Origin: an uncultured Eubacteriales bacterium
GTDB taxonomy: Bacteria > Acidobacteriota > Aminicenantia > Aminicenantales > Aminicenantaceae
Assembly (NCBI GenBank): GCA_964348015.1
Contig: CAYGBC010000050.1
Coordinates: 35,643 to 99,642, forward strand
DNA: 64,000 bases
Direction: 5' to 3'
The notes under the pieces are model-generated. The model was not told the DNA's origin and made no database searches. It saw only the letters and a list, made by a program, of their open reading frames with translations. Positions 14,253-43,957 of this stretch are shown piece by piece. A program made the translations under genes and the position numbers. How positions within the stretch are numbered: the stretch's first letter is position 1; each line of letters starts with the position of its first letter.

Positions 14253-14342
14253 GGAGGGATGGCCGAGTGGCTTAAGGCGGCGGTCTTGAAAATCGCTTCC
14301 CGGGCAACCGGGACGGGGGTTCGAATCCCTCTCCCTCCGCCA
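14253..14342 (+). tRNA. tRNA-Ser (anticodon UGA), type II with long variable arm, encoded CCA
   Basis: Hand-folded: acceptor GGAGGGA/TCCCTCC, D-arm GCC..GGC, anticodon stem GCGGT/ATCGC with loop CT-TGA-AA, long variable arm, T-arm GGGGG-TTCGAAT-CCCTC, then G and CCA. Confidence 0.95.
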
Positions 14343-14430: not shown

Positions 14431-14524
<94 letters not shown>

Positions 14525-25719: not shown

Positions 25720-25796
25720 TTTTCTGATCTCCTTTCGATAAATTTTCGGTTGAATTTATTTCTTTTCTTTTTCTTCGTATTCTTCCTGATCAAGTT

Positions 25797-26642: not shown

Positions 26643-26714
26643 TTTTCTCCCCTGAGATTGTGTTTTTAATATAGAATCATTTAGAAAAAAAATCAAACCC
26701 AAAAGTCATTTCGG

Positions 26715-26743
26715 TTGACACAACTTTAGTGAACAGTGATAAT
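26715..26743 (+). promoter_or_regulatory. Sigma70-like promoter (TTGACA-17-GATAAT)
   Basis: TTGACA at 26715-26720 and GATAAT at 26738-26743, about 80 nt upstream of the YjiK-like gene. Confidence 0.45.
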
Positions 26744-26824
26744 TTTTTCATAAAACTGAATGAATGAATTCAGAACTGGTGATGCGTTATCGTTTATAAA
26801 GATTCGATTCGTAATGCGAGGATT

Positions 26825-27691: not shown

Positions 27692-27728
27692 GAGAATATT
27701 TCAGAGATGAATATGTAATTTTTGCCTT

Positions 27729-29126
27729 TTATTCCACCTGATATTCTGCTTTTTGTGCGGATAGTCTTTTATGTTCTCGTCTTATTAAAAAACAAAAGAT
27801 TATCCAGATTACTGCTGCAACAACATTGACTCTTGCAAAGTTTTCGTTGCGGAAGTTGAGATATGTCGTGCCGATAAATACAGTCAAAGCGACCAATACA
27901 TCACCTGTTCGCACAAAAAAAGTATCTATGGCTGCCTTGGCTTTGTATTTAGCCTCCCTTGAAGTGATAAGAAAAAGGGCTCCCTTGGTTGTGTTCATGA
28001 GGGAGTAATCCGTACTATTTTCCAGAGTTTTGGTCCACCTGACTACAGCAAAAGATGCTCCGAGGCCGATTAAAAAGTATCCTCCGAGGGCGATGAAAGG
28101 TAGGAAGAGAACCGCTCCTCTGACACCAAACCATTTGAAAATCCGTGAAACAAGGAATAGCTGGATCAACATGCCCAGAAGATTGACAATCTCATTAAAA
28201 CCGGATTCTATTTTAGTGAAATATCGTACAGTTGCTTCTTCTGAATCCTCAATTTCTCCGGCTAATCGAGCTTCATTAGCTGACTGTTTCCATACATCAG
28301 ATCTAATGTATTCCCCAGTGGTGTTAACGTAATTGAGCATCAGAATCATAAAAGCAACAAAAATGAGGTAGCGGCTTTTTAGGATCAAGCGGAATCCCCC
28401 GCCTTTTTGGAGTGGTTTTTCCTGGGTTTTTTCTCCAACCTCGCTTTCAACAATACGAGCCGATGCCTTTTGTCTGATTCTTTTAACCTCTCTTTTATGG
28501 ATAATAATCGTTAAGACAATGGAAATTACTAAGATAGCACCAGCCAGAAGCATAAATTGATAAACACTCAGTGGCCCCTCTGGCTGCACGAGATTTTTAG
28601 TTACCTTTGCTCCAAGATAAGCACCTAAGCTTTGTCCTATCATGATTATCGGGAATAAGCGTTTTCCTGCTTGTTCTGTATATATATCGTTGGAAAATCC
28701 CCAAAATTGGGCGACAACAAAAACACCAAAAATTCCTAGCCAAATCCAAAAAACAACGCCTAGAATACTCAATGGAGTATTAAAAATTCCTAAAATATAA
28801 AAAAGCACTAAATTCGAGATAAAGAAGGAGGTTACAGAGACTATTAAAACGTTGCGTGGAATTTTAGAAGAGAGAAAGCTGAATATCTTTATAACGAAAA
28901 TAAGCAGAATGGCCACAGCTGCATAAAGATACGCTTCTTGAGAGGCTTCGTATTTTGTTAAGATTAGTCCTTTTCTGAGTGGTTTCAGAATAGAATAAGC
29001 GCCCATAATCAGAAATATATTGAGTAACAAAAAAAAGACTGTCAGGCCTTCACCTGGATGGATGACTGTGAAGAGCCTAAAAATTTTATAAATGAATCCA
29101 GACGGTTTTTCTTCAGCTGTCATCAT
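27729..29126 (-). CDS. TLC-family (ATP/ADP translocase-like, Npt1/Npt2) nucleotide transporter homolog 1
   Basis: About 12 TM segments. The N-terminal IFRLFTVIHPGEGLTVFFLLLNIFLIMGAYSILKPLRKGLIL and VVAQFWGFSNDIYTEQAGKRLFP match the FW.FAN.I...EAKR.Y hallmark of Rickettsia/Chlamydia Tlc/Npt proteins. The start is uncertain: ATG at 29126 or 29123, or TTG at 29141. Confidence 0.7.
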   Translation of the reverse strand: MMTAEEKPSGFIYKIFRLFTVIHPGEGLTVFFLLLNIFLIMGAYSILKPLRKGLILTKYEASQEAYLYAAVAILLIFVIKIFSFLSSKIPRNVLIVSVTSFFISNLVLFYILGIFNTPLSILGVVFWIWLGIFGVFVVAQFWGFSNDIYTEQAGKRLFPIIMIGQSLGAYLGAKVTKNLVQPEGPLSVYQFMLLAGAILVISIVLTIIIHKREVKRIRQKASARIVESEVGEKTQEKPLQKGGGFRLILKSRYLIFVAFMILMLNYVNTTGEYIRSDVWKQSANEARLAGEIEDSEEATVRYFTKIESGFNEIVNLLGMLIQLFLVSRIFKWFGVRGAVLFLPFIALGGYFLIGLGASFAVVRWTKTLENSTDYSLMNTTKGALFLITSREAKYKAKAAIDTFFVRTGDVLVALTVFIGTTYLNFRNENFARVNVVAAVIWIIFCFLIRREHKRLSAQKAEYQVE

Positions 29127-29240
29127 TTTTTCTTTTGCCAAAGGCTGCTCTGAATTCCCCGTCTAGACTTTCTGATATGCTTCGTTTTTTTATTTATCTT
29201 ATGCGCATCTTTATTCTTGAGCTATTGAGGCTGGACATAA

Positions 29241-30644
29241 TTATTTCGCTTGTTGTTCTATTCCTTTTGCTGATAGTTTTTTATGCTCTTTCATGACGAG
29301 AAAACAAATTACAATCATGATGCCAATCAAAAGGACGTTGAATGTCGCAAATCCTTCGGTCTTGAGTGCCAAATAAGTGGTTCCGAGGAAAACGAGTATG
29401 GCAGATAAAACATCGCCACTTCGGTGAAAGAAAGTGTCGATAGCTGCCTTGGCTTTGTATTTTTCTTCTCGTGAAGTGATGAGAAAGAGAGAATGGCGGG
29501 TGGTATTCATGAGCGAATAATCTGTTCCGTTTTCAGCCACTTTAACCCAATGGACCATCATCAGAGAGGCTCCGAGAGCGATGAGAAAATATCCGCCGAG
29601 AGCAATGAAAGGAAGGAAGAGAAGGGCAATCCTGACGCCAAACCACTTGAAGATTCGAGAGACAAGAAAAAGCTGGATGAACATCGCAACAAGATTAAAA
29701 TATTTCATGAATCCAGCATAAAACTGGCCGATGAATTCCTCTAAAGTTAATCCTCCTGTTTGGCCAGCTTCCACAGCTTCTACTCCGACGCGTTTGACAA
29801 ATTCCCCTAATATATATTCGCCATTCGTGTTAATAAAATTCAAGAGCAAAACAAGAAAGGCAATGTAGAGAAGATAACGTTTTTTGAAAAGAAGCTGAAA
29901 TCCACCTCCTTTTTCAAGCGGTTTGACCTGCTCTTTTTTTTCTGATTTTTCCTGGCTGATTTTTGCTTCCGCATAATCTGATCGTTTTGATTCTCTATTG
30001 TGAATAATCCAAGTCAATAATATGCATATTCCAAGGACTGCTCCTGCCACAAGCATCATTTGGTACAGGCCCAGGGGCACCACGAGCCGTTCCGCAATCG
30101 CGCTTCCAGAAAAAGCTCCGAAGGTTGCACCAAAAGCGACTAAAGGAAACAGTCTTTTTCCTGCCTCAGGCGTGTAGAGATCATTGGCAAAACCCCAGAA
30201 TTGGGCCACTACCATGACGTTGAATATTCCCACCCAAATGAAAAAGATAATACCCATGGTGCCGAGATCAATCCCACTGTAAGACAATCCAAAAAAGATG
30301 ACTAAGTTAGAAATAAAAAAGAGAGTCACCCATGTGATTAACTTCTGACGCGGGAACTTGGACGCGATGCCGCTGAATGCTTTAACCACAAAAACAAGCA
30401 AGACGGCAATGGCGGCAGAAAGATAGCTTTTCATTTCTGCCCCTTTTCCGGCTAAAATGAGGGCTTCTCTCACAGGTTTTATGATGTAATAAGCTGCCAG
30501 AAGAAGAAAGACGTTGAACATCAAAAGAAAAGCCGTGAGAGCTTCACCAGGATGGATGACTGTGAAAAGTCTGAGAATTTTGTATCCTATTCCTCCCGAT
30601 TTGGCTCCAGATGCAAGCGCGACTCGAGGATTATCATTATTCAT
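29241..30644 (-). CDS. TLC-family (ATP/ADP translocase-like) nucleotide transporter homolog 2
   Basis: It is a paralog of the previous gene (ILRLFTVIHPGEALTAFLLMFNVFLLLAAYYIIKPVREALIL; VVAQFWGFANDLYTPEAGKRLFP). SD GGAGGGG lies 5 nt upstream of the ATG. Confidence 0.7.
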   Translation of the reverse strand: MNNDNPRVALASGAKSGGIGYKILRLFTVIHPGEALTAFLLMFNVFLLLAAYYIIKPVREALILAGKGAEMKSYLSAAIAVLLVFVVKAFSGIASKFPRQKLITWVTLFFISNLVIFFGLSYSGIDLGTMGIIFFIWVGIFNVMVVAQFWGFANDLYTPEAGKRLFPLVAFGATFGAFSGSAIAERLVVPLGLYQMMLVAGAVLGICILLTWIIHNRESKRSDYAEAKISQEKSEKKEQVKPLEKGGGFQLLFKKRYLLYIAFLVLLLNFINTNGEYILGEFVKRVGVEAVEAGQTGGLTLEEFIGQFYAGFMKYFNLVAMFIQLFLVSRIFKWFGVRIALLFLPFIALGGYFLIALGASLMMVHWVKVAENGTDYSLMNTTRHSLFLITSREEKYKAKAAIDTFFHRSGDVLSAILVFLGTTYLALKTEGFATFNVLLIGIMIVICFLVMKEHKKLSAKGIEQQAK

Positions 30645-30781
30645 TGAATCCCCTCCTTTTTTCTTGAATGCAATGGTTATGCAAATCCCTTTTTCTTGGC
30701 CTGGAATACTTTGCTTTTAAGGTGGGTTGAGTTGAGATGGTAATAGACTCCAACCAAAGCGTTTGGAATAAATTTATCAGC

Positions 30782-30810
30782 ACTATATTTAAATCGAGAA
30801 GGGATGTCAA
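30782..30810 (-). promoter_or_regulatory. Sigma70-like promoter (TTGACA-17-TATAGT) for the TLC2-TLC1 pair
   Basis: The minus strand reads TTGACA TCCCTTCTCGATTTAAA TATAGT: -35 at 30805-30810, -10 at 30782-30787. It lies about 135 nt upstream of the TLC2 ATG. Confidence 0.5.
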
Positions 30811-31031
30811 CCATCAAAGGAACAAAATCTGCGCCGATTTTTTCCACTATTCCTGTGAATATCCTTGTTGAAAAATGCAGGGTGGGGCATTTTAAAAAAT
30901 TGATTTTTTTACAATTCCGGGAAGTTGCACAATTTTTGGTCACCTGATTTTTGCTGTGAAATGAGTCCTAAAATGACGGGCAGCTACGGGTCAGAATGAG
31001 GGTTTTAATGCTGATAAAAGAAGGTGTGGCA

Positions 31032-31832
31032 TTAAAAAAGGACTGCGGCTTCCCCTTTTTCTTCGATCAGTTTTTGAATCGTTTCAATAATCAGTTTTTT
31101 CCGTCCCAGCAACGCATCAATCTCGTCTTTATTCAGATATTTTTTCAATTTTGATTTTATCTTTTTGTCTTCTATTTTCTGCAAGTTCTGGTAGAGCTTC
31201 CTCGAGCAGCGAGTGATTTCGCATCCTTCGATGAGCTTCGGCAAAGGTTTGAAAGCCTCGGAGAAATCGACTCTCCAGACCTTCCATTCGTCTGTAATTA
31301 AAATATCCTGAAGGTCGGATTGCTGGCAGAGTGATGTGTCATAGACGAGATACTCGAATATTTTAATTTCCTCGAGCGTATTAAAGAAACTCTCAGGATC
31401 GGGGGGCGCGATTTTTTTTAGCCGGCGTTCTCCTTCATCCCAAAGAAGACTGACTAATATTTGAAGCGAGCCCTTTCTCCCACCTAAATTTCGCTCAACA
31501 ACGGGTGGGATTATGTTAAGGTCGAGCAATTTATCCAGCTCATACGCAGCGAGTCCGTATATATAGCTGTCGGTGGGCACTCTCGGTCTCTGGTAATTTG
31601 AAAATTTGAGAAATCCTCTTTTTTTGATACCGCCGACATCAAGATGCACAAAATAAGAATCTCCTCTTGTCCCACTCGGTCTCCTGTTGCTTATGGTGGC
31701 TTTTTTCAAATATTTTTCGGTTTCTTTAATATCGAAGCTCTCTTGATTGCCCCAGAGAAAGTTGGAAAATGTTAAAACAGCGATGACAAAGAAGGCAATG
31801 AAAGCGCGTTCTAAACTTTTTTCGGTTTTCAT
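31032..31832 (-). CDS. Exported paralog C of the PI4K-like family with degenerate catalytic motifs (pseudokinase-like)
   Basis: N-terminal hydrophobic segment AFIAFFVIAVLTFSNFLWG. It keeps GLAAYELDKLLDLNIIPPVVER and GSLQIL. Where A and B have NEDRHQN it has CQQSDLQ, and where they have IDHSR it has VDFSE. Confidence 0.55.
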   Translation of the reverse strand: MKTEKSLERAFIAFFVIAVLTFSNFLWGNQESFDIKETEKYLKKATISNRRPSGTRGDSYFVHLDVGGIKKRGFLKFSNYQRPRVPTDSYIYGLAAYELDKLLDLNIIPPVVERNLGGRKGSLQILVSLLWDEGERRLKKIAPPDPESFFNTLEEIKIFEYLVYDTSLCQQSDLQDILITDEWKVWRVDFSEAFKPLPKLIEGCEITRCSRKLYQNLQKIEDKKIKSKLKKYLNKDEIDALLGRKKLIIETIQKLIEEKGEAAVLF

Positions 31833-31875
31833 GATCCTTCCTCCATTGCGAAGGTATATAAATCTGTGTTCGGGT

Positions 31876-33093
31876 TCAGGATTTGATAGAAAGCCATAGC
31901 GCGTTAATTGTTATTGAAAAGACAAGACGCATCTCCTTTGACTTGCCGTTGACAAAGGTCGAAGCCTCTTCACCTATCCGGGGTTTGAGCCATGGTTTAA
32001 AGAGCTGTTTTTCAGAGCTCTCGATAATCAAAGCGCTGAGTTTACCTTGTGGGTAGACACTGGATATATTGGTGTCGATGATCCAGACTTTTCCGCTGTA
32101 TCGGCTCATCTCTGCTTCGTTTTTCACTTGCTGAGGAGTATGAGCCGTCACGATGGATGTGGCACTGAGATTTTTTAATATTTTATCCAAAATCGGCTCA
32201 AACTCAGGACCCCTGTAGGAGTAATCCCTGTACCAGAGCGGTCCATTCTCATCGAAGACAATTTCATAAGTGGGACGAGGTTCTCGGCCGAGCAAACGCG
32301 CAACCCGAAACATATCGAGTTCCCTGCGGAGACGGTCATTCAGTTTTTTCAACGGCCAGGTTGAATATTTTTCACTGATTCCTCCGTGGACGAATACGAT
32401 GCCGTTAATTTTGATCACAGCATTGTGTTGAAGGATCCATGGGGCGTAATTTTTATTGAATTCTCTGATGTAATGCCACCGCACATGACGCCTTGTCAAG
32501 AGAGTGACATTCATAGAATTCCGAATTTTTTCCTCCCAGAAGGCTCTGATATTTGGATTGATTTCGGATTTGCTGTCATCTTCATCGGAGGATGGGATCC
32601 TGAGCCTTTTTCTGATTTTTCTCTCTTCCTTCTCGATGTATTCAGCAGGGAGGAAAGACATCAACTGCTCGACAGGCACGTAGCCCCTTCTGTCGAAGGC
32701 GATATCGCTGATATTCATTTCTTCGTGGTTGCCGATCAGCATGTGGACTTTGCCCCCGGCTTCCTCGGCTTCCTCTTCTAACTTTTTCAAAAGAACAAAG
32801 ATTTTTTTCGCATCAGGGCCTCTGTCCATGATATCGCCGATCTGCACGAGATGGGTTTTTCCCGCTATCCAGCGGAGGTTATCATCTAAGATCCCATTTT
32901 CTGGGTCTTTCAATATTTCGATAAAGTTATCATAGTCTCCGTGAAGGTCTCCGACAGCCACAATCCTCTCCACGCCGGTCCATTCGCAGCGGATGTCTTC
33001 GGAGAACAGATTTGTGAAAAAGACTAAAATGAATACAGAAATGATTGTGAAACGACAGAGTTTTGGCGCCAGAGTTTTATTTAATTCGCGCAT
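31876..33093 (-). CDS. Exported/membrane-anchored PPP-family metallophosphoesterase (Shelph-like Ser/Thr phosphatase)
   Basis: PPP signatures are present: VGDLHGD, GDIMDRGPD, GNHE, VHGG. The N-terminus CRFTIISVFILVFFTNLF is hydrophobic. It lies 43 nt upstream of paralog C on the same strand. Confidence 0.75.
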   Translation of the reverse strand: MRELNKTLAPKLCRFTIISVFILVFFTNLFSEDIRCEWTGVERIVAVGDLHGDYDNFIEILKDPENGILDDNLRWIAGKTHLVQIGDIMDRGPDAKKIFVLLKKLEEEAEEAGGKVHMLIGNHEEMNISDIAFDRRGYVPVEQLMSFLPAEYIEKEERKIRKRLRIPSSDEDDSKSEINPNIRAFWEEKIRNSMNVTLLTRRHVRWHYIREFNKNYAPWILQHNAVIKINGIVFVHGGISEKYSTWPLKKLNDRLRRELDMFRVARLLGREPRPTYEIVFDENGPLWYRDYSYRGPEFEPILDKILKNLSATSIVTAHTPQQVKNEAEMSRYSGKVWIIDTNISSVYPQGKLSALIIESSEKQLFKPWLKPRIGEEASTFVNGKSKEMRLVFSITINALWLSIKS

Positions 33094-33287: not shown

Positions 33288-36044
33288 ATGAAATGCCCGC
33301 AGTGTCAAAAAGAGAATCCAGACGACAGCCATTTTTGCAGTCACTGTGGATCCAAGGTTCATTCACCGGATAAGCCTCCGGCCCATCCCACAAAGACCGT
33401 CGAAGTCCCATCCGAGGAATTGAACGTGGGAAGTACGTTCGCGGGACGATACAAGATCGTCAAAGAGTTGGGGCGAGGAGGAATGGGGGTCGTCTATAAG
33501 ACTCAAGACACCAAACTCAAGAGAGAAGTCGCCTTGAAATCTCTTTCCCCCCAACTCCTGGGAGACGAAACAAAAGTCCGTTTTGTACGCGAAGCTCAAG
33601 CCGCCGCTGCCCTGAACCATCCGAATATCTGCACGGTGTACGAAATTGATGAATCCAAGGGAAAATCTTTCATTGCCATGGAATACATCGAAGGCCAAAC
33701 ACTCAAAGAAAAAACGGCGATGAGACCTCTGAACCTCAACGAAGCTCTGGAGATCGGGATTCAGATCGCAGACGGCCTCCGGCATGCGCATGACAAAGGC
33801 ATCGTTCACCGGGATATCAAGAGCTCGAATATCATGATCAAAAAAAACGGCCAGGCAAAAGTGATGGATTTTGGACTGGCCAAGCTTATCGGGAGCACCA
33901 TGGTGACACGCGAAGGAACAACTCTGGGAACCATATCGTACATGTCACCTGAGCAGGCCCAGGGTAAAGCAGTGGATCAGCGGTCTGATATTTGGTCGTT
34001 GGGAGTTGTTTTGTATGAATTGGTGTCGGGCCAATTGCCTTTTCTCGGAGAACATGATCAGGCCGTGATCTATTCGATTATCAATGACGAGCCGCTGCCT
34101 GTCACCTCTCTTCGCAGCGGAGTCCCGTTGGAATTTGAAAGGATTATTCATAAATGCCTGGAGAAGGATCCGGACTTTCGGTATCAGAACACGATTGACC
34201 TTCAAGCGGACCTCAAGCGGATGAAGAGAGATTTCGAAAAAGAAAAAGTCACGTCTGTGGCCACCACAATTCTTGCCAAACCGCGGAAAAGAAAGAGGAG
34301 TAAAGTGTCTCCGATTATTCTATGGGTGGCCATCTCGATTTGTGCAGTGACGCTCTTACTCGCGTTGTCCTTTTCTCTCTTCAAGCCTCAAAAGCCCACA
34401 AGTGAATTCAATCTGTTTCCGTTTACAGGAGGAGACGAGGTTTCCGTGTTTCCCAGCTGGTCTCCGGATGGAATGTGGATTGTCTACGCGTCGGATGAGG
34501 GAGGAAATCTGGATATCTGGAAAAAGTCGATTGAAGGGAGTGAAGCGATTCGAATCACATCCAGCCCTTATAATGAAAATGAACCTGCCTTTTCTCCGGA
34601 CGGGCGTCAGATTGCATTTTCCAGCGATCGGGAAGGCAGTGGAATTTTCATCATTCTCGCAGAAGGAGGAACCCCATTCCGTTTAACAGATTTTGGAGTT
34701 CGCCCTTCCTGGTCGCCGGATGGAAAGACTCTGGCTTTTGATCTGTACGGAGATATATATCTCACCCCCTCCACAGAAAATGAGCCCAGGCTTGAGGTGA
34801 GAGGAACAAGCGGCATTCCGTACACGGTGTGGTCTCCGGATGGGGAAAGGATTCTTTTCTGGAATCGAACCAAAGGGGATGTTTATGTGCGTTCTCTCAA
34901 GAATGGGAATTCAGAGCCGTTGGGATTAGTTCCCGCTGGGCAGGAAATTTCCGGCCTGGCCTTATCGAATGATGGACGGGTGTTGGTCATGAGCCGCGGT
35001 TCTTTCGGAGGGAATAAAAACCTGCTCAGAGTGAATCTCAATCCCAAGACTTTAAAACCCATAGGGAGCCCGGCTCATCTCTCTGTCACTTCCACAGAAG
35101 ATATTCAATGTGCTCTTTCTCCGGATGGGACCAGGCTGGCCTTCAGAGCGTCCCAGTTAGAGCGTCACCTTTGGGCCTTTCCATTAGACACAGATGAAGG
35201 TTCACTCAAAGGGGAGGGAAGAAGAATCACTTTTAAGAGCCAGCTCAATTACTATCCTGCGTGTTCTTCAGATGGACAGATGTTAGTTTGGACATCGCAT
35301 TTTGCAGGCAAAGGAGTATTGTGCACAAAAAACCTTGGAGAGGGCGAAGAGAGCAAAACAACTCTGGAATGGGGACGGAAGGTCAGGGAAGTCGGCGGGA
35401 GTTTCTCTCCCGATGGCAAACGGATATGTTATTCTTCGACGATTAATGGCTCCTATGAGCTCTGGATCCTTCCGTCTTTGCGAACTGTCGCAAGAAAGTT
35501 GACCTCTCCGGACGAACGGCAGCGGGACACTTTGACCGCTTGGTCTCCGAAAGCAGACACCATCGCATTTTATTCGAATCGAAGTCAGAGCTGGGATATA
35601 TGGACCGTTCAGGTCGGCGGGGCGGACCAGCCCAAGCAGCTCACTCCTTGGGAAAGCAATGAGCAGTATCCCTGCTGGTCCCCGGATGGGCAGAGAATTG
35701 CGTTTAAAACGACCCAAGAGGGAAATGCGGATATATGGATAATGAATTCGGACGGAGGAAACCCCCGGCCCTATATAAAGCACCCGGCTGAAGAATGCTG
35801 GTCCTCGTGGTCTCCGGATGGACGATGGTTTTATTTTGTTTCGAATCGCGGGGGAGTATTTAATGTCTGGGCGAGGGCGACAGAGAGTGGCGAGATTCAC
35901 CAGGTCACTCACTATAGCGGTCAGTCTCAAGGACTTCCGGATGCAGGCTTATTCACCAAATTTGCTGTGACTCCGACACACCTGATAATCCCGCTGGAAT
36001 CCCGAGAAGGGAATTTGTATATACTCGAGAATTTGAAAAATTAA
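33288..36044 (+). CDS. Hanks-type Ser/Thr kinase with N-terminal zinc ribbon, TM segment and two extracytoplasmic TolB/PD40-type beta-propellers
   Basis: Zinc ribbon CPQCQKENPDDSHFCSHCG. Kinase motifs: GRGGMGVVYK, HRDIKSSNIMI, DFG, SYMSPE. The TM segment is ILWVAISICAVTLLLALSFSLF. Many WSPDG/FSPDG repeats typical of PD40 follow. Confidence 0.9.
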   Translation: MKCPQCQKENPDDSHFCSHCGSKVHSPDKPPAHPTKTVEVPSEELNVGSTFAGRYKIVKELGRGGMGVVYKTQDTKLKREVALKSLSPQLLGDETKVRFVREAQAAAALNHPNICTVYEIDESKGKSFIAMEYIEGQTLKEKTAMRPLNLNEALEIGIQIADGLRHAHDKGIVHRDIKSSNIMIKKNGQAKVMDFGLAKLIGSTMVTREGTTLGTISYMSPEQAQGKAVDQRSDIWSLGVVLYELVSGQLPFLGEHDQAVIYSIINDEPLPVTSLRSGVPLEFERIIHKCLEKDPDFRYQNTIDLQADLKRMKRDFEKEKVTSVATTILAKPRKRKRSKVSPIILWVAISICAVTLLLALSFSLFKPQKPTSEFNLFPFTGGDEVSVFPSWSPDGMWIVYASDEGGNLDIWKKSIEGSEAIRITSSPYNENEPAFSPDGRQIAFSSDREGSGIFIILAEGGTPFRLTDFGVRPSWSPDGKTLAFDLYGDIYLTPSTENEPRLEVRGTSGIPYTVWSPDGERILFWNRTKGDVYVRSLKNGNSEPLGLVPAGQEISGLALSNDGRVLVMSRGSFGGNKNLLRVNLNPKTLKPIGSPAHLSVTSTEDIQCALSPDGTRLAFRASQLERHLWAFPLDTDEGSLKGEGRRITFKSQLNYYPACSSDGQMLVWTSHFAGKGVLCTKNLGEGEESKTTLEWGRKVREVGGSFSPDGKRICYSSTINGSYELWILPSLRTVARKLTSPDERQRDTLTAWSPKADTIAFYSNRSQSWDIWTVQVGGADQPKQLTPWESNEQYPCWSPDGQRIAFKTTQEGNADIWIMNSDGGNPRPYIKHPAEECWSSWSPDGRWFYFVSNRGGVFNVWARATESGEIHQVTHYSGQSQGLPDAGLFTKFAVTPTHLIIPLESREGNLYILENLKN

Positions 36045-36106: not shown

Positions 36107-36457
36107 ATGGTGGTTGAAAAGGAAAGGCGGATATCTCCGAGGGTTCCGGTCGAGGTCAATCTGCGGCTGTGCAGAGATGAGAAAGTCGAGAAAAAGTCAA
36201 AAGGAATAATTAAAAATATTACACTCGATGGGCTGTGCGTGGAGACCGATTTGCCTGCCTCAGTGGGTTCTGATCTGGTGTTCAGCCTTGATACGCCGTG
36301 CGAGTTTAAATTCAACATATTCGGAAAAATCATCTGGCAGGAAAAGAAAGGCGATCTCTTCAGGTACGGGACGAAATTCACAAAGCTGGAAATCACAGAA
36401 AAGCCCGACCTCTACAAGTTCATCCTTGTGACGATGTGCTTGAACGAGCAGCAATAA
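36107..36457 (+). CDS. PilZ-domain protein (candidate c-di-GMP receptor)
   Basis: 116 aa with RRISPR (RxxxR-type) followed by NITLDG (D/N-x-S/T-x-x-G), the two PilZ binding motifs. Confidence 0.65.
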   Translation: MVVEKERRISPRVPVEVNLRLCRDEKVEKKSKGIIKNITLDGLCVETDLPASVGSDLVFSLDTPCEFKFNIFGKIIWQEKKGDLFRYGTKFTKLEITEKPDLYKFILVTMCLNEQQ

Positions 36458-36557
36458 TCATCTCTGAATTCAAGACTCAATTTCTCTTTGGAATCCTTTG
36501 GATTCATTCGGAAAATAAACATTATAAATAATATAAACAATGGATATAAATAATGGA

Positions 36558-36586
36558 TTGACTTTAAATTTTTCTTTTGATAAAAA
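36558..36586 (+). promoter_or_regulatory. Sigma70-like promoter with extended -10 (TTGACT-17-TAAAAA, TGa upstream)
   Basis: TTGACT at 36558-36563, TG at 36578-36579, TAAAAA at 36581-36586. It lies about 80 nt upstream of the STAS gene and is preceded by direct repeats TATAAATAAT (36524.. and 36545..). Confidence 0.4.
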
Positions 36587-36664
36587 GCTAAAGAGAAGAA
36601 GCAGTCTGATAAGGAACTGCCCGAAAATAATAGAGAAATAAGGTCTTCAGAAAGGAAGAATGAT

Positions 36665-37012
36665 ATGGAAATAAACGCAAGAGAAAAAGATGATGTCGTA
36701 ATCTTTGATATTGAGGGGGAAATCAGAAGATCGGATATATCAGACATCACTCTTCACCAGCTCGTTAAAGACCAATTGGACTCCGGAAAGAGAAATATCC
36801 TCCTCAATTTTCAAAATGTTGAATTCATCGACAGTTTTGGAGTCGGGGAAATACTGGCGAGCTATATTTCCACTAACAATTTGGGCGGTAAACTGAAGAT
36901 CGCAAAGATATCCAAAAAACTTTATCTTGTTTTCCAGGTCACAATGCTCACGAAGGTTCTTGAAATATTCGATGAAGAAGACGTGGCCTTAGACAGCTTC
37001 GAAAAAGAATAG
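36665..37012 (+). CDS. STAS-domain anti-sigma-factor antagonist (SpoIIAA/RsbV-like)
   Basis: 115 aa with VVIFDIEGEI.. and the conserved phosphorylatable serine context EFIDSFGVGEIL (Ser57 by my count). Confidence 0.85.
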   Translation: MEINAREKDDVVIFDIEGEIRRSDISDITLHQLVKDQLDSGKRNILLNFQNVEFIDSFGVGEILASYISTNNLGGKLKIAKISKKLYLVFQVTMLTKVLEIFDEEDVALDSFEKE

Positions 37013-37047
37013 CCTTCGCCGCAGATTTCTTAGGGTTATAGCAATTT

Positions 37048-39723
37048 ATGGCTAAAAGTCGCCTCTACAGAATTCTGTCGCGGATTGTCGATATCAAGCC
37101 TGGCGAAGAAATCATTGCCTCCCTCCTTTTCCTGTATTTCTTTTTCATCATGTTCCCTTACTACATCATCAAACCTTACAGGGATGCGAAGTATATCGTC
37201 AGGGAAGGATCAGGAGAACTCCCGATTGCCTATCTGTCGACAGCGGTTGCGGTAGGGATTATTGTGGCTTTTTATTCCCGTCTTCAAGTCAAGATTCCGA
37301 TGCGCGTTTTAGTCATCGGAAGCCTCATATTTTTTATCGTGACCTGCTTCCTTTTTCACCAGATATTTACAGGACCGCGGGAATATTCAAATGTGCCGCT
37401 GATATTTTGGATATGGGCCAATCTTTTCGTCGTGGTTTTGGGAACCCAATTCTGGATAATGGTGAATGATGTCTTCAATCCGAGGGAAGCCAAAAGAATG
37501 ATCGGCTTTTTTGGCGGCGGCGGACTCCTGGGGGGAATTTGCGGAGCCTCTTTAACGGGTGTGCTCGGGAGGAAATACCCTAATGAACTTCTTATCATCG
37601 CATTTGGAATGCTGATACTGTGTGTAGTTGTAGTGAATTTCATATTCATCTGGCAGAAAAAGAAAAGTCCTCCGGCTGATACACAAAGTCATAAGGGCCA
37701 AACGAGTGGAGCAGAGCTTGCAAAGGTGGGTTTTTTGGATAGTTTCAACACGATAAGAAAAAACAAATACTTGCTGCTTCTCGCTATTGTCGTGGTTCTC
37801 ACTTTTATCGCGGCCACATTCATTGATTACCAATCCAAAACCGTGATCGATGTGTATGAGGAGAGGATGGACCGCATGCTCCTCATATTCGGGTTTTTTC
37901 ATGCGGGATTGCTGGTCCTCCCTTTCTTTATTTCCATATTCATGACCAGCGCTATTATCAGGCGATTTGGGATTGGTCTGACACTGCTGCTCTTCCCGCT
38001 GATATTGCTCTTTTGTGCAGGTGGAATCGCAATTTGGCCTATTCTTCCGTTAGCCATCTTCATCAAAACAAGCGATAAAAGCCTTTCCTTTTCTCTTAAC
38101 CAGTTTGTGCGGGAACTTCTCTACATCCCTATCTCGCCCGAGATGAAATACAAAGCCAAAGTATTCATCGATATGTTTCTCAACAGGTTTGCCAAAGGCT
38201 TAGGCGCGACGATACTCATACTCCTGCCTCTTCTCATTCCCGCTTTCAGGGGCGGAGCGGGATCAAATACTTTGATCGACAATGAGGCTTTAGGAAAACC
38301 TGGTGTCGTGGAAAAGACTGAAATGCCAGGAAAATCCGACATATCAGAGCCTGATACGGAGAAAAGATCAGGGGGCCAGCAGGTGGAGGATGAATTGGAA
38401 AAGAGGGATATACGAGAAACAAGAATTCGAATTGTGAGCGTTATTTCCGTCTTTTTTATTTTAGCCTGGATTTTCTTCAATCTCAAAGTCAGCAAAGAAT
38501 ACACCAAGACAGTCAAAAACAAATTAGAAATAAAGTGGGACCGGGCAGACAGGATGGTAGCGGAAAAAGTGGATGTGGATTATACAAAATTGATTTTTGA
38601 TACCCTGGAGAGCAAGAACCGGAGTTCGGTCCTGTATGCGATGCATATCTTTGATTTGATTAGGCAGGACAAGCTCACTCCAGAAGTGAAAAAATTGATT
38701 TCCCAGAAATCAGATGAGGTGAAAGTGTCTGCGCTGGGAGGCCTATTTGAGTCCGGCGAGTTCGGTCTTCTCCCCGAAACGGATGAGATCATCAGCGAAG
38801 ATGTCCTGGAAAAAGAAATTGGAGAGATCATGTCCCTGGATGTCTATCAAGATGTGATGAAAAGCTATGTCGAAAAAGCGCTGAAAGATGAGAGCATCGA
38901 GTCGGAGACAGCCAAAATGGAAGTGGCCAAAGCGATCGGATTGATGGAGTCTGATTCTCCTCTTGCCCAGAAGCTGGAAGACCTCCTCTGGGAGGAGTCT
39001 CCGGAAGTGAGCAAATACGCACTCGAGAGCGCCGCGAAGCTCCGGAGGAAAGAGTATGTTCCCGCGCTGATCCAAAAGCTGACAAGCCCCGTCACCAGGG
39101 AAGATGCAAGCGGTGCACTGAAAAGATATGGAAATACGATAACTGGCACTCTGTCGGATTATCTCAGCGACCGAGAGGAAAATGTGGAATTGAGGAACGC
39201 CGCCGCATCTGTCCTGGCCCGCATCGGAACTCAAGATGCCGGAGATTTTTTAACATGGGAGTTGGTGGAAGGCAAGGGGGAGATCGATACGGAACTCATT
39301 GATGCTCTGGACCGGATCCGTTCGGAAAATCCTGAAGTTCGGTTTGGATTTACTGCGGTAGAGACAAAAATACTCCAGAAAGTAAAGAAATACTGTCAGC
39401 TGTTTGTGAGGCATTTTGGCGCAAAATCCAAAAGGAAAAAAGTGGAGAAGATCATAGAGCTGCCTGAAAATTTAAATGTCCTGCTGATGAATATTTTCAA
39501 ACTGTTGGGACTCATTTACTCTCGAGAAGATATCATGAGGGCCTATCAGAACATACGAGTCGGAACAAAGGATTCAGTGGATTATGCTGTCGAGCTTCTC
39601 GATAACACCATACGAAAAGAGATGAGAGAGCTCATCGTTCCTCTGATGGAAGACCTGCCGCTTGAAGAACGGGTGAAAAGATGCAGAAACTGCCTGAAGT
39701 ACTTTACGAGGTCGAATAAATAA
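37048..39723 (+). CDS. TLC-family transporter domain fused to a C-terminal HEAT-repeat domain (paralog 1)
   Basis: The N-terminal ~470 aa are TLC-like: ILSRIVDIKPGEEIIASLLFLYFFFIMFPYYIIKPYRDAKYI; TQFWIMVNDVFNPREAKRMIGFFG. The C-terminal ~400 aa are soluble with HEAT-like repeats (ESPEVSKYALESAAKLRRKEYVPALIQKL..). Confidence 0.7.
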   Translation: MAKSRLYRILSRIVDIKPGEEIIASLLFLYFFFIMFPYYIIKPYRDAKYIVREGSGELPIAYLSTAVAVGIIVAFYSRLQVKIPMRVLVIGSLIFFIVTCFLFHQIFTGPREYSNVPLIFWIWANLFVVVLGTQFWIMVNDVFNPREAKRMIGFFGGGGLLGGICGASLTGVLGRKYPNELLIIAFGMLILCVVVVNFIFIWQKKKSPPADTQSHKGQTSGAELAKVGFLDSFNTIRKNKYLLLLAIVVVLTFIAATFIDYQSKTVIDVYEERMDRMLLIFGFFHAGLLVLPFFISIFMTSAIIRRFGIGLTLLLFPLILLFCAGGIAIWPILPLAIFIKTSDKSLSFSLNQFVRELLYIPISPEMKYKAKVFIDMFLNRFAKGLGATILILLPLLIPAFRGGAGSNTLIDNEALGKPGVVEKTEMPGKSDISEPDTEKRSGGQQVEDELEKRDIRETRIRIVSVISVFFILAWIFFNLKVSKEYTKTVKNKLEIKWDRADRMVAEKVDVDYTKLIFDTLESKNRSSVLYAMHIFDLIRQDKLTPEVKKLISQKSDEVKVSALGGLFESGEFGLLPETDEIISEDVLEKEIGEIMSLDVYQDVMKSYVEKALKDESIESETAKMEVAKAIGLMESDSPLAQKLEDLLWEESPEVSKYALESAAKLRRKEYVPALIQKLTSPVTREDASGALKRYGNTITGTLSDYLSDREENVELRNAAASVLARIGTQDAGDFLTWELVEGKGEIDTELIDALDRIRSENPEVRFGFTAVETKILQKVKKYCQLFVRHFGAKSKRKKVEKIIELPENLNVLLMNIFKLLGLIYSREDIMRAYQNIRVGTKDSVDYAVELLDNTIRKEMRELIVPLMEDLPLEERVKRCRNCLKYFTRSNK

Positions 39724-39724
39724 A

Positions 39725-42241
39725 ATGGTTAAGAACTCGACTCACAAGATATTATCAAGGGTCATTGATGTCAGACCCGAAGAAGTGTCTTCCTCTATCC
39801 TTCTGTTTCTTTATTTTTTCTTTATCACTTCTTCCGCCGGCATCATCAAACCGGTCAAGCTTTCTCTTTTCTTGGACCAGCTCACCTTTGAAAAACTGCC
39901 TTTTGCCTATCTTTTGACCGCAGTATTCATGGGATTCTTTGTATCTTTGAATACTCGGTTATTGCGCGCCATGAAGAGGCACGTGTACATTTCTCTCAGC
40001 CTGGCTTTTTTTATGGCGAATCTTTTCCTGTTCTGGATACTTTTTAGGATAGAATGGCAGTGGACATCATTAGCGTATTGGCTGTGGTCAGAGATATTCA
40101 TGGTGACCACAGTGACGCAATTCTGGATCCTGGTGAATGACATCTATCATCCCCGCCAGGCCAAACGGCTGGTCGGTTTTTTAGTCAGCGGAGGGCTTTT
40201 AGGAGGAATTTGCGGGTCTCTGCTTTCTTTTCTGCTGATACAATCGCGGGTCATAGGGACCGAAGGATTACTTTTAGTCTGCCCTTTATTGCTGGCTTTG
40301 TGCCTTGTCGTTATTGTCTTTGTGAAGAAGTACCAAATACAAGAAAGCAAAGACGAAAAAAAGAAAGAAGTCGCATTCAAGAAGCCAAAAGTCGGATACA
40401 TCGAGAGTCTGCGCTTACTCAAAAAAAGCCGTCATCTGATTTTTCTGAGCGGGATCATGATCTCGGCAATTGTGGTCACGACACTGATTGATTTTCAATT
40501 CAATTCAATCATAGATCATCGGTTTGTTGATAAAAACGCTCAGACGGCCTTTTTCAGCGCGTTTTTCGCTGCGCTGATGATTTTTTCTTTTTTGCTTCAC
40601 ACTTTCCTGACCAGCCGGATTTTGAGAAAATTTGGGATACAGATCGCTCTGCTGATCGCTCCTTTCCTGTTACTTCTCGGTTCAGGAGCCGTGTTTTTCC
40701 TTATGGGGGCACTTTTTTATTGGGCCGTAGTTCTCAAGTTCACTGACAAAAGTTTTGCGCATTCGCTCAATCAATCTGTCAGAGAACTGCTGTATATCCC
40801 GATTCCTCCTGAAATTAAATACAAGGCCAAGGTGTTCATCGATATGTTCGTCAATAAACTTGCCCGGGGCATCGGTGCCCTTCTCCTTTTGGGGGCTTTT
40901 ACAGTTTTTGGCTTGGGAGGGAAAGAACCTGCGGGCATTGTCGGATATATCAGTGCCATGGTGGTCATTTTCGCTGCCTTGTGGATCGCACTCAACCTGT
41001 TGATCACCAGAGAGTACGTGAATATCGTGAAAAGAAGCCTGAAAATAAAATGGCGGGATGCGGACAAGTTGATCGGAGAAAAGATTGATGTGGATATGAC
41101 AAAGCTGGTTTTTGACACTCTGGAGAGCAAAAACAGGAGTTCGGTCCTCTACGCCATGAATCTTTTTGACCTCGTCAAGAAAGAAAAGATGAGCCCCGAG
41201 TTGAAAAAGATTATCTCTCAAAAATCAGACGAGATAAAAGCGACTTCCATGGATGTGCTTTTTGAAATGGAGGGTGAAGTTTTAGTGCCTGAAATGGAGG
41301 ACACTCTCGATGAGGCGGACCTGAACGCCCAGATTCAGGAGATCATGTCTCTGGACGTTTACCAGGAATTGATGAAGGACAAGATCGATAGGATTGTCAG
41401 TGAAGAGGGAAAAGATGCGGAGATCTCCAGGATGGAGGCCGCCAAAGTCATGGGGATGATGGAAGCCTCTCCTCCCCTGATCCAGAGCCTCAGCAAGTTG
41501 ATCAGGGATGAGTCACCAGAGGTCGTCAGCTATGCGGTGGAGAGTGCGGGGAAATTGAGAAGAAAGGAACTCGTCCCGTTTATCGTCCGCCACCTGAACA
41601 ATCCATTCATTCAGAGAATTGCCCAAAATGCCTTGGTGGGATACGGTGAAAAGATTATCGGAACACTGAGAGATTATCTGGGAGACAACAGAGAAGACCT
41701 GTCATTGAGAAAAGCGATCCCCGATATCATAGCCCGAGTGAGTACTCAGAGAGCAGCCAATATCTTGACTCTGGAACTGAAAAAGAAAAATAAAGATGTC
41801 GAGCCTGAGATTATTGCGGCCATCTACAAGATGAAATCGAAGAATCCAAAACTGGTTTTCGAAGAAATGGTCGTACTGCCGGAAATTATGGAGAAAATCA
41901 AAGAAAGTCATGAGATTCTAATTGAAATAGACGAGTTGGTGAGAGGAAAGAAAATTGAGCCTCTCGCTAAAAATCTTGAGAATGATCTGGACCGCTCGAT
42001 CAGACGGATTTTTGAGCTATTGAGTCTAATATATCCTTATGAAGATATGATCAAAGCTTACCAGAATATTTGTTCCGGAACGAGAAAAGCCATGGATTAT
42101 TCGCTGGAGCTTCTGGATAACACTGTGAAAAGAGAAATCATGGAAGTTCTTCTTCCCCTTATAGAAGATATTCCCCTGGAAGATAAAGCCAGGAAGGGCA
42201 AGAAAGTACTCAAAACTTTAGAAAAGTCTAAATCTTCTTGA
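39725..42241 (+). CDS. TLC-family transporter domain fused to a C-terminal HEAT-repeat domain (paralog 2)
   Basis: It is collinear with the previous gene (TQFWILVNDIYHPRQAKRLVGFLV; DVDMTKLVFDTLESKNRSSVLYAMNLFDL versus DVDYTKLIFDTLESKNRSSVLYAMHIFDL). The ATG lies 1 nt after the upstream stop. Confidence 0.7.
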   Translation: MVKNSTHKILSRVIDVRPEEVSSSILLFLYFFFITSSAGIIKPVKLSLFLDQLTFEKLPFAYLLTAVFMGFFVSLNTRLLRAMKRHVYISLSLAFFMANLFLFWILFRIEWQWTSLAYWLWSEIFMVTTVTQFWILVNDIYHPRQAKRLVGFLVSGGLLGGICGSLLSFLLIQSRVIGTEGLLLVCPLLLALCLVVIVFVKKYQIQESKDEKKKEVAFKKPKVGYIESLRLLKKSRHLIFLSGIMISAIVVTTLIDFQFNSIIDHRFVDKNAQTAFFSAFFAALMIFSFLLHTFLTSRILRKFGIQIALLIAPFLLLLGSGAVFFLMGALFYWAVVLKFTDKSFAHSLNQSVRELLYIPIPPEIKYKAKVFIDMFVNKLARGIGALLLLGAFTVFGLGGKEPAGIVGYISAMVVIFAALWIALNLLITREYVNIVKRSLKIKWRDADKLIGEKIDVDMTKLVFDTLESKNRSSVLYAMNLFDLVKKEKMSPELKKIISQKSDEIKATSMDVLFEMEGEVLVPEMEDTLDEADLNAQIQEIMSLDVYQELMKDKIDRIVSEEGKDAEISRMEAAKVMGMMEASPPLIQSLSKLIRDESPEVVSYAVESAGKLRRKELVPFIVRHLNNPFIQRIAQNALVGYGEKIIGTLRDYLGDNREDLSLRKAIPDIIARVSTQRAANILTLELKKKNKDVEPEIIAAIYKMKSKNPKLVFEEMVVLPEIMEKIKESHEILIEIDELVRGKKIEPLAKNLENDLDRSIRRIFELLSLIYPYEDMIKAYQNICSGTRKAMDYSLELLDNTVKREIMEVLLPLIEDIPLEDKARKGKKVLKTLEKSKSS

Positions 42242-42280
42242 AATCTCACTTTATTGGGCTTATAATAACAACCATTAAAA

Positions 42281-43957
42281 ATGCCAAAGTTATTCGTCTA
42301 CCCAAAAAAAGGAGAGGAACTCGTTATTCCTCTCAAAGATAACAAAATCTCCATAGGCCGGTCTGCTGATAATGACATTCCGATTCTCGATCCATTCTGT
42401 TCAGGGCATCACGCCTTCATTTATCCCAAAGAAGAAGGGTATGCGGTCAGGGATAACGGCAGCAAAAACGGAACTTTCCTGAACGGGAAAAAACTTGTCG
42501 CCGAAACAGAATTGAAAAAGAGCGATGAGGTTCTTATCGGGTCGACGAGGATCATCTTTGACGACAGGCTTTCCACGAACGTGGAAATGATGGAAGCCAC
42601 ATCTCCCACAACAAACATCAACACCATAATCAATGTGGAGGATGTCCTGAAGAAGTCTGATATCGATACGACGTTGAAAGCCACTTTTGCCTCGGTGGAC
42701 ATGGAAAAGGTCAAGACGGAGCACAAAGCCTTCTCGGTGTTGAGTGAAGTGAGTAAAGCCCTTATTCTCCATAAGCCTCTGGGAGAACTCCTGGACAGCA
42801 TCATGGACCTCATCTGCGAAAACCTCCCGATGGACAGAGGAATTTTGATGTTGAAAGAGGGGAATCCTCCGCAGTTTATTCCGAAAGTGGTCCGGATCAA
42901 CAATGAGGGGCTGAAGAATCAGCGGATTCAGGTGAGTCAGAGCATTATCAATATGGCAGTGAATAAAAACTCCTCGGTCCTCACGTCTGACGCCCAGGCT
43001 GACTCGCGCTTCAAGGCTCAAGAGAGCATCATTAAATTCAACATCCATTCCGCCATGTGCGTTCCCCTGTGGAATAACAGAGAGATCATAGGAATCATTT
43101 ATTCTGACCGAATATCTCTGATGGATCAGTTCACGGATGAGGACCTCAAGATGCTGACTCTTCTGTCCAATTTAGCGGCGGTTAAAATAGAAAATGCGAA
43201 GCTGATTGAGCAGGCTATCGAGAAAGAAAAGATGGAGAAGGAGCTGGCTCTGGCTGCGAAAATTCAGGAGGATTTTCTCCCTAAAGAGAGCCCGAAGCTC
43301 AAGAATTATAAGATTGCCGGTTCGAATGTGCCGTGTTATCAGGTCGGAGGGGATTACTATGATTTTATCCCGATTGATGATAAACGCCTGGGCATTGTCA
43401 TTGCTGATGTCTCCGGAAAAGGTGTCAGCGCATCCCTCCTCATGGCTTCCTTGAGAGCGGCTCTTCAGTCCGAGCTTTTTCCCAAATACAAAGTGGATGA
43501 GATGGCGGGCAAACTGAACGATTTTGTCCACCGCAGTTCTTCCCCGAACAGCTTCATCACCTTCTTCTTCTGCGAGCTGGACAAGAAAACCGGCGAATTG
43601 AGATACATCAACGCCGGCCATAATCCTCCGATTGTCCTGGATAAAAAAGGCAAAGTGTATCGCATGGAAAGCTGTGGTTTGTGTTTGGGGATGTTTCCTT
43701 CTGTGGATTATGGAGTGCAGAATGTGACATTGAATCCTGGGGATACGGCTGTGCTGTTTACAGACGGAATCACCGAAAGCCGCAACAAAGACAATAAAGA
43801 GTTCACTGAAGAGAAGTTAATTAAACTGCTCCAAAAAAATGTCAAACTGTCCGCGCAGAAGCTCCTGGATAAAGTCAATGAGGAAGTCGATAAATTCACG
43901 GCTGGAGCTGAACGTATGGATGATATGACGCTCGTCGTCATCCAGCGATGTGAATAG
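42281..43957 (+). CDS. FHA - GAF - PP2C (SpoIIE/RsbU-type) serine phosphatase
   Basis: FHA region: ISIGRSADNDIPI..SGHHAFI..DNGSKNGTFLNG. The central region is GAF-like. The PP2C/SpoIIE region shows GGDYYDF, GIVIADVSGKGVSASLLMA, LFTDGITE, DDMTLVVI. Confidence 0.85.
   Translation: MPKLFVYPKKGEELVIPLKDNKISIGRSADNDIPILDPFCSGHHAFIYPKEEGYAVRDNGSKNGTFLNGKKLVAETELKKSDEVLIGSTRIIFDDRLSTNVEMMEATSPTTNINTIINVEDVLKKSDIDTTLKATFASVDMEKVKTEHKAFSVLSEVSKALILHKPLGELLDSIMDLICENLPMDRGILMLKEGNPPQFIPKVVRINNEGLKNQRIQVSQSIINMAVNKNSSVLTSDAQADSRFKAQESIIKFNIHSAMCVPLWNNREIIGIIYSDRISLMDQFTDEDLKMLTLLSNLAAVKIENAKLIEQAIEKEKMEKELALAAKIQEDFLPKESPKLKNYKIAGSNVPCYQVGGDYYDFIPIDDKRLGIVIADVSGKGVSASLLMASLRAALQSELFPKYKVDEMAGKLNDFVHRSSSPNSFITFFFCELDKKTGELRYINAGHNPPIVLDKKGKVYRMESCGLCLGMFPSVDYGVQNVTLNPGDTAVLFTDGITESRNKDNKEFTEEKLIKLLQKNVKLSAQKLLDKVNEEVDKFTAGAERMDDMTLVVIQRCE

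Follow-up and report, generated by a model that had tools for sequence, protein, structure and literature searches.

The 64,000-nucleotide stretch of contig CAYGBC010000050.1 analysed here (the window; all positions are counted from its first letter) carries a cluster in which genes for a STAS-only protein and an FHA-GAF-PP2C phosphatase flank two genes for NTT-HEAT proteins, large membrane proteins with an N-terminal transporter domain and C-terminal HEAT repeats. The STAS, NTT-HEAT and PP2C genes are linked throughout about 80 species, and an RsbW-like serine kinase that probably belongs with them is encoded elsewhere in the window. This arrangement led us to propose a partner-switching-type phospho-cycle that is dedicated to the NTT-HEAT proteins rather than to a sigma factor, a model that, taken as a whole and from sequence comparison, we hold with about as much doubt as belief. 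Since the presumed phospho-switch is locked to NTT-HEAT genes in so many species, the NTT-HEAT proteins are its probable target or sensor.

In the window the cluster comprises, on the + strand, the genes for the STAS-only protein (115 aa, 36665-37012; Pfam STAS, 8e-12), for NTT-HEAT paralogue 1 (891 aa, 37048-39723) and paralogue 2 (838 aa, 39725-42241), both matching Pfam TLC, MFS_1 and HEAT_2, and for the phosphatase, which is of the SpoIIE/RsbU type (558 aa, 42281-43957; FHA, 6e-18; GAF, 3e-15; SpoIIE, 9e-54). A preliminary description of this DNA had given the spacings between the four genes as 35, 1 and 39 nt, with which the open reading frame (ORF) coordinates agree, and its domain calls for these proteins, and for a PilZ protein and a Hanks kinase upstream, were likewise reproduced with Pfam.

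By its best database matches the window belongs to Candidatus Aminicenantes. Relatives were collected by a genome scan with one genome per species and a five-sequence alignment as the query, which gave 178 matches. The best 80 of these (L-numbered loci) formed the comparative set; all are from metagenome-assembled genomes of Aminicenantes/Acidobacteriota, one class-level lineage, and their genes were annotated by homology to the window proteins. The STAS gene was found directly upstream of NTT-HEAT in all 63 loci that included upstream DNA, and ORF criteria gave the FHA-GAF-PP2C gene as the immediate downstream neighbour of NTT-HEAT in 71 of 73, both exceptions being frameshifted NTT-HEAT genes that still neighboured the phosphatase gene. 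The gaps between the cassette genes were short, with medians of 18-43 nt. Gene order in other genomes had been put forward in the preliminary description as a check on its ideas, and the order STAS, NTT-HEAT, FHA-GAF-PP2C was present in every evaluable locus of the 80.

Two arrangements of the locus could be distinguished. Type A (about 42 loci, order X-Y, where Y is a co-conserved block of genes described below) has STAS, a single NTT-HEAT gene, PP2C and the RsbW-like kinase on one strand, followed on the opposite strand by two HipA/PI3K-like genes, a TLC-only gene and a metallophosphoesterase gene. In type B (about 38 loci, order Y-X, including the window) the NTT-HEAT gene is duplicated, paralogue 1 occurring only here, and the second block, from the RsbW-like kinase to the metallophosphoesterase, is located upstream of STAS and not downstream of PP2C. 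The type A arrangement, in which phosphatase and kinase stand together, looks ancestral. Between the two types the cassette proteins have diverged to 35-40% identity, and the genes flanking the loci are wholly different from one locus to another (for example L001, L010 and L039). As the linkage has outlasted this divergence, the block swap and the turnover of the flanks, it appears to be maintained and not merely inherited.

The STAS protein had been described as a single-domain protein retaining a phosphorylatable serine, and this was borne out: in an alignment with sequences from solved complexes, Ser57 falls on the phosphorylated Ser58 of SpoIIAA and, together with the motif VxFIDSFGVGEILASY, it is invariant in 64 of 64 orthologues. 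The protein scored 55.1 bits against TIGR00377, for which the cut-off is 53.45. No other protein of the cluster is nearly so conserved: its median identity to the window protein is 87% in type B loci (NTT-HEAT paralogues, 60% and 49%; PP2C, 69%; metallophosphoesterase, 48%), and each of its best 120 database matches was at least 86% identical. Conservation of this degree would be expected of a small hub that has to fit several partners.

In the phosphatase, too, positions that matter for its predicted activities are preserved. All 70 orthologues compared have the phosphothreonine-binding residues of the FHA domain (R27, S41, H44 and N63), which implies a phosphothreonine input, and of the metal-binding residues of the PP2C domain they all have D358, D361 and D376, with D495, D547 and D548 kept in 67-68 of them. 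The gene for the RsbW/SpoIIAB-like serine kinase (140 aa, 24470-24892, + strand; Pfam HATPase_c_2, 4e-28) lies about 12 kb upstream of the cassette in the window. Its scores fall under the NCBIfam equivalog cut-offs for RsbW; all 30 orthologues compared retain the residues of its N, G1 and G2 boxes. The preliminary description had rightly reported its presence and had taken it for a lone gene, a view that the relatives do not support, as it is a conserved member of the neighbourhood: in type A it stands directly 3' of the PP2C gene in no fewer than 27 of 36 loci, and in L012 (10559-12748) and L015 (10564-12747) the stop codon of FHA-GAF-PP2C has been lost, so that the phosphatase runs on through a linker of about 10 aa into the kinase, giving a single ORF of about 729 aa. 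This adjacency and these fusions indicate that the kinase belongs to the module, and the protein encoded at 24470 is the probable cognate kinase of STAS, relocated by the block swap. Judged by their conserved residues, STAS, kinase and phosphatase apparently make up a complete and active triad.

The preliminary description had placed all four genes behind one promoter-like element at 36558-36586 on the + strand (P1), made up of a -35 box TTGACT (36558-36563), a TG (36578-36579) and a -10 box TAAAAA (36581-36586) with a 17-nt spacing. The element itself was substantiated by the comparison, as a footprint reading TTGACTTT-N13-(T/C)TGATAAA was found 5' of STAS in 59 of 67 loci, in both arrangements, and the spacer composition flips between AT-rich and GC-rich among loci while the boxes stay. 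A single-promoter operon was not, because of a second element, P2 (42238-42266, + strand), which consists of TTGAAA, 17 nt and TATAAT, matches 11 of 12 consensus positions and has a -35 box that overlaps the stop codon of paralogue 2. P2 was recovered in 61 of 75 loci (31 of 36 in type B, 30 of 39 in type A; fewer than 0.2 loci expected from shuffles), its -10 box reading TAGAAT in high-GC relatives and TATAAT in the window. No riboswitch or other Rfam element was found in the STAS leader. The cluster is predicted to consist of two co-directional units, with P1 serving STAS and NTT-HEAT and P2 serving PP2C and, in type A loci, also the kinase; the STAS gene would be co-transcribed with NTT-HEAT from P1 and not with the kinase.

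In predicted architecture the window proteins fit the NTT-HEAT fusion family, with the NTT/TLC domain N-terminal and the HEAT repeats C-terminal. An AlphaFold2 model of paralogue 2 (mean pLDDT 77.8) contained 12 transmembrane helices and a HEAT solenoid predicted with confidence (residues 540-838), joined by a linker of low confidence, and with the solenoid following 12 membrane spans the HEAT domain should be cytoplasmic. The top Foldseek matches of the model were AtNTT1 (9j3l; TM-score 0.77, rmsd 3.3 Å) and Chlamydia NTT1 (9j3n; 0.74), and generic MFS proteins ranked behind both. At the sequence level, the matches to Pfam TLC scored 51-65 bits (gathering score 21), a phmmer search of PDB gave AtNTT1 with 2e-12, and the matches to NCBIfam TIGR00769, for which the cut-off is 387, reached 56-63 bits. 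The TLC assignment is, on these scores, a superfamily-level one only, which falls short of the nucleotide transport presumed in the preliminary description, and the modelled fold is NTT-like with a substrate that is not demonstrably a nucleotide.

As reported in the preliminary description, the two NTT-HEAT genes are a tandem duplication with the TLC-HEAT architecture, but the stretches said to be nearly identical were not recovered: the proteins are 39% identical over their full length with a longest identical run of 16 aa, and the best DNA repeats between the genes show 70-73% identity over 100-134 nt. Such values indicate an old duplication. Recent gene conversion between the paralogues was considered and ruled out, as DNA identity does not exceed 73%. 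Paralogue 1 also carries an acidic, low-complexity insertion of about 60 aa (residues about 400-465) in the loop between transmembrane helices 11 and 12, predicted to be periplasmic, which brings it to 891 aa compared with about 831 aa in orthologues without the insertion. As a target of a Hanks kinase and the FHA domain this insertion was rejected, being predicted to lie in a periplasmic loop and being absent from the orthologues.

In 2017 Major, Embley and Williams reported NTT-HEAT fusions as a monophyletic group, widespread in bacteria and oomycetes, often trailed by or fused to a cyclic-nucleotide-binding domain and of unknown function (PMC5381601). The remark in the preliminary description that the function of TLC-HEAT fusions is unknown still holds, although the family was not new. 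Our literature search found no usable functional study of NTT-HEAT, and the searchable literature using that term made no mention of STAS or PP2C. A profile search gave 1713 NTT-HEAT clusters (50% identity) at E<=1e-30. The window proteins are about 30% identical to this general family, and in all 19 of the long representatives scanned a cyclic nucleotide (cNMP)-binding domain was fused to the protein.

To sample the general family, 80 metagenomic loci encoding proteins of about 920 aa (L083-L162) were used. Position +1 of NTT-HEAT was occupied by a 143-aa cNMP-binding protein in 51 of the 80, and the 29 loci that extend 4.5 kb or more downstream contained genes for cNMP-binding proteins (21 loci), stand-alone receivers (15), GAF histidine kinases (14), REC-PP2C proteins (6) and HDOD-GAF proteins (4). 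In a typical operon of this set NTT-HEAT is followed by the 143-aa cNMP-binding protein, a GAF histidine kinase, REC-PP2C and REC; a DNA-binding output is lacking, and upstream of NTT-HEAT there is often an orthologue of the TLC-only gene, an Omp85 protein and a secreted 577-aa protein without a Pfam match. A search of the 80 distant loci for STAS, using a hidden Markov model (HMM) of 63 orthologues with --max at E<=50, gave no matches, so in this sample the STAS link is specific to the Aminicenantes clade. Conversely, no cNMP-binding or REC gene was present in any of 82 Aminicenantes-clade loci over which these counts were taken. The STAS-module and cNMP/REC partner sets are mutually exclusive between the clades, and both sets include GAF domains and PP2C domains of the SpoIIE type. 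Distant NTT-HEAT genes, too, have orthologues of some block Y genes in their flanks, namely the TLC-only gene (HMM E about 1e-150), the metallophosphoesterase gene and one HipA-like gene (hyp266), which dates the association of these genes with NTT-HEAT to before the STAS link.

The clade described here shares with the NTT-HEAT and NTT-HEAT-cNBD family (PMC5381601) the N-terminal 12-helix NTT/TLC domain and the C-terminal HEAT repeats. It differs from the general family in its shorter proteins (about 830 aa), in having no cNMP-binding partner, in the tandem duplicate present in about half of its genomes, and in having STAS upstream and FHA-GAF-PP2C, with or without RsbW, downstream. These comparisons portray NTT-HEAT as a membrane protein that would be generically embedded in signalling operons with interchangeable partners.

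In canonical modules such as the rsbV-rsbW-sigB and spoIIA operons, the sigma gene is usually retained in the operon. The preliminary description had noted that no sigma factor is encoded in the 64 kb, and both approaches used here concur: Pfam found no Sigma70 domain in any window ORF of at least 110 aa, and jackhmmer with E. coli FliA, RpoS and RpoE found no sigma factor in the window. As the jackhmmer scan did detect sigma factors in other loci, it was sensitive enough. There was also no group 3 or group 4 sigma factor in the window or in the surrounding 8 kb or so at any of the 80 clade loci.

Between block Y and P1 the window has an accessory insert on the + strand, identified with Pfam, which encodes a protein with Zn-ribbon, Hanks kinase and PD40 propeller domains (33288-36044) and the PilZ protein (36107-36457; 6e-10). 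The PilZ protein has the motif RRISPR and, as the second motif, NITLDG, in which Thr replaces the Ser of (D/N)xSxxG. PilZ was found in 9 loci only, positioned upstream of the conserved P1 and outside its unit, and the c-di-GMP control that the preliminary description had drawn from it is not a conserved feature. It had further suggested that the Hanks kinase feeds the FHA domain. The kinase is indeed present upstream, but its place in the system is not conserved, as about 8 type B loci have an orthologue of the Zn-ribbon kinase, placed differently from locus to locus, for example upstream, convergent downstream or after NTT-HEAT. In L082 an orthologue (7930-8537; 42% identical to the protein at 33288-36044) begins 53 nt past the second NTT-HEAT gene, in the place usually held by PP2C, and the contig ends there. 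Most relatives have neither PilZ nor the Hanks kinase, and in L002 the metallophosphoesterase gene abuts the STAS promoter region. Being sparse and mobile, and in the case of PilZ upstream of P1, these genes are accessory at best; the recurrent, mobile kinase is nevertheless a reasonable candidate for the source of a phosphothreonine input to the FHA domain. The 64 kb contain three Hanks-type Ser/Thr kinases (16086-18056, 33288-36044 and 49792-52578), one with a PEGA/NHL propeller gene behind it, one with the PD40 propeller and one with TPR repeats. Ser/Thr phospho-signalling is evidently dense in the host genome.

Block Y (24889-33093, - strand) encodes three paralogous HipA/PI3K-like proteins of about 270-300 aa with signal peptides (24889-25719, 25797-26702 and 31032-31832), two TLC-only permeases (27729-29141 and 29241-30644) and an apparently exported PPP-type metallophosphoesterase (31876-33093; 1e-31 to the cold-active protein-tyrosine phosphatase of Shewanella), all on the - strand, and within it an SdiA-regulated/phytase-like lipoprotein on the + strand (26825-27691). 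Identity is 55% between the two permeases and 28% between them and the membrane part of the HEAT-bearing proteins. The HipA-like proteins are HipA_2/SCO1664-like with kinase motifs that are weakly FAM20-like; of the three, only the protein at 24889-25719 has DRHxxN and IDHS intact, these motifs being degenerate in its two paralogues. Block Y is linked to the STAS cassette whichever of the two stands first, and its predicted contents suggest an extracytoplasmic system for the processing and uptake of phospho-compounds that is linked to NTT-HEAT. Elsewhere in the window, matches above the Rfam gathering thresholds identified a bacterial large SRP RNA (9247-9514) and two tRNA genes (14253-14339 and 14431-14521), and a protein of 1750 aa with BNR/Asp-box, He_PIG and beta-propeller repeats (52625-57877, - strand) is probably a large surface or secreted protein.

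In the cycle that we propose, the RsbW-like kinase would phosphorylate Ser57 of STAS and the PP2C phosphatase would remove the phosphate, with phosphatase activity set by a small ligand on the GAF domain and by a phosphothreonine protein on the FHA domain. The phospho-state of STAS would then decide whether STAS itself, or the kinase that it titrates, docks on the cytoplasmic HEAT solenoid, and docking would either switch the NTT-type 12-helix permease or read its state. Direct docking to the HEAT domain is more tentative than this scheme as a whole, and as the output step we think it somewhat more probably wrong than right. In other phyla the small cNMP-binding protein, adjacent or fused, together with the GAF histidine kinase, REC and REC-PP2C, may fill the same role beside NTT-HEAT, and the occurrence of different partners there suggests that the STAS module is a lineage-specific replacement of the regulatory partner. 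By extension, the NTT-HEAT proteins could be signalling-coupled permeases or transceptors whose HEAT domain is a docking platform for interchangeable small regulators, the phospho-switched STAS protein being the one used in Aminicenantes, which is possible but falls short of being probable.

Several observations weigh against a cycle dedicated to NTT-HEAT. No fusion of STAS to NTT-HEAT was found among the database matches, the long representatives or the related loci, and P2, if it functions as predicted, can let the phosphatase be expressed independently. In the complete genome CP070825.1 (L001/L043, 12543-13871) the cassette persists except for the catalytic domain of the phosphatase: the PP2C orthologue ends after HMM position 390, past the GAF domain, where a Plug-domain gene on the opposite strand abuts, and the kinase-bearing block is not near the cassette, STAS and both NTT-HEAT genes being retained. 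This hints that the pairing of STAS with NTT-HEAT is the more fundamental link or, alternatively, that the system is decaying. Moreover, the whole sample is one clade, so that shared ancestry adds to the synteny. The single class-level origin of all 80 loci would even allow the genes to be neighbours through the kinship of the sampled genomes, with no functional coupling at all. This strikes us as very improbable, given that the genes have stayed together while the proteins diverged to 35-40% identity, the block order was swapped, a gene was duplicated and the flanks were fully exchanged, that the promoters are conserved and a PP2C-kinase fusion exists, and that PilZ and the Hanks kinase are variably present at the same site, which argues that unselected neighbours are not retained. 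Finally, RsbW-like proteins of about 140 aa usually bind sigma factors, and in 3 of the 80 loci a housekeeping-type RpoD gene with sigma-70 regions 1.2, 2, 3 and 4 lies divergently upstream of STAS (L062, 3403-4965; L064, 3402-4958; L080, 3406-5112; - strand in each).

These last two points would be accommodated by canonical partner switching, in which the RsbW-like protein, of typical anti-sigma size at 140 aa, acts on an unlinked or primary sigma factor, STAS is its antagonist, PP2C is the input phosphatase and NTT-HEAT is co-transcribed cargo or part of the regulon; STAS, kinase and PP2C also match the SpoIIAA/RsbV, SpoIIAB/RsbW and SpoIIE/RsbU families. We consider this unlikely, because an alternative sigma factor is missing from the window and from the 8-kb surroundings of the 80 loci, NTT-HEAT always stands between STAS and PP2C, and the STAS promoter is shared with NTT-HEAT and not with the kinase. 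The RpoD-type genes, which carry a long, non-conserved insert between region 1.2 and regions 2-4, are confined to three closely related loci and occupy an insertion-prone site that in other genomes has received unrelated genes (in the window, the Hanks kinase and PilZ), and their adjacency is regarded as coincidental. The direction of signalling could also be reversed, with NTT-HEAT as a sensing transporter whose HEAT scaffold passes its transport cycle or substrate occupancy on to the phosphatase and kinase, and phospho-STAS as the output acting on another target. The distant NTT-HEAT operons, in which the other genes are all for signalling proteins and none provides a DNA-binding output, show the pattern expected of a membrane sensor; STAS-only proteins with unknown, non-sigma targets are documented (SypA, BtrV and RbaV; PMC8256260), and the extreme conservation of STAS would fit several partners. 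On the other side, the phosphatase already has two input domains, FHA and GAF, and does not require a third, membrane-derived one, co-transcription of STAS with NTT-HEAT fits a subunit-like relation, and no candidate downstream target is conserved in the neighbourhood. We judge that a sensing role of this kind has only a small chance of being correct, and a phospho-cycle acting on NTT-HEAT remains our preferred reading.

If docking on the HEAT domain is real, this would be the first partner-switching module with a membrane transporter as its direct output, and it would offer the first functional handle on a family of more than 1700 clusters that includes cyanobacteria, Chlamydiae, deltaproteobacteria and oomycetes. 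NTT-HEAT proteins are widespread, occurring for instance in Chlamydia trachomatis, cyanobacteria and oomycetes, and have stayed uncharacterised since their description in 2017. This cluster and the distant signalling operons together argue that the family is wired to cytoplasmic signalling, be it by cNMP, two-component, PP2C or STAS proteins. NTT-HEAT is also a candidate for the kind of non-sigma target that is lacking for partner-switching systems of the SypA, BtrV and RbaV types. With four to five genes and two consensus-like promoters the module is compact, and although its host is uncultured, transfer to E. coli should be feasible.

The closest parallels to the cluster are the RsbV-RsbW-RsbU and SpoIIAA-SpoIIAB-SpoIIE modules of Bacillus, with which it shares a STAS protein that has the phospho-serine in a DS(x)G loop, a GHKL kinase of about 140 aa and a PP2C of the SpoIIE/RsbU family with N-terminal input domains. 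Unlike them, it contains no sigma gene, has one or two large membrane proteins between STAS and PP2C, transcribes the kinase with the phosphatase or has moved it about 12 kb away, and uses FHA and GAF as the inputs to PP2C. HsbR/HsbA of Pseudomonas is one of the non-canonical partner-switching systems. Others that operate without a sigma factor are SypE/SypA of Vibrio fischeri, BtrU/V/W, which controls type III secretion in Bordetella, and RbaV/W of Rhodobacter (PMC8256260). All four share with the present cluster a STAS phospho-switch that has no dedicated sigma factor, and in SypE and HsbR kinase and PP2C are fused in one protein, as they are in L012 and L015. The targets in those systems are unknown, concern secretion or biofilm formation, or are FlgM or a diguanylate cyclase, whereas the conserved partner here is the transporter-like NTT-HEAT, a link with STAS of which we found no report in the searchable literature.

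STAS folds also serve as cytoplasmic regulatory or accessory elements of membrane transporters, and the NTT-HEAT cluster can be compared with two such cases. MlaB is a free-standing STAS-only subunit of the MlaFEDB ABC transporter; its binding partner is the ABC ATPase, and it is not known to undergo phospho-cycling by a kinase and phosphatase of the RsbW/PP2C kind. SulP/SLC26 transporters carry a C-terminal STAS domain (PMC8256260), which is covalently fused to a transporter of unrelated fold. In contrast to both, the STAS protein of the NTT-HEAT cluster keeps a full SpoIIAA-type phospho-site and is accompanied by a dedicated kinase and phosphatase.

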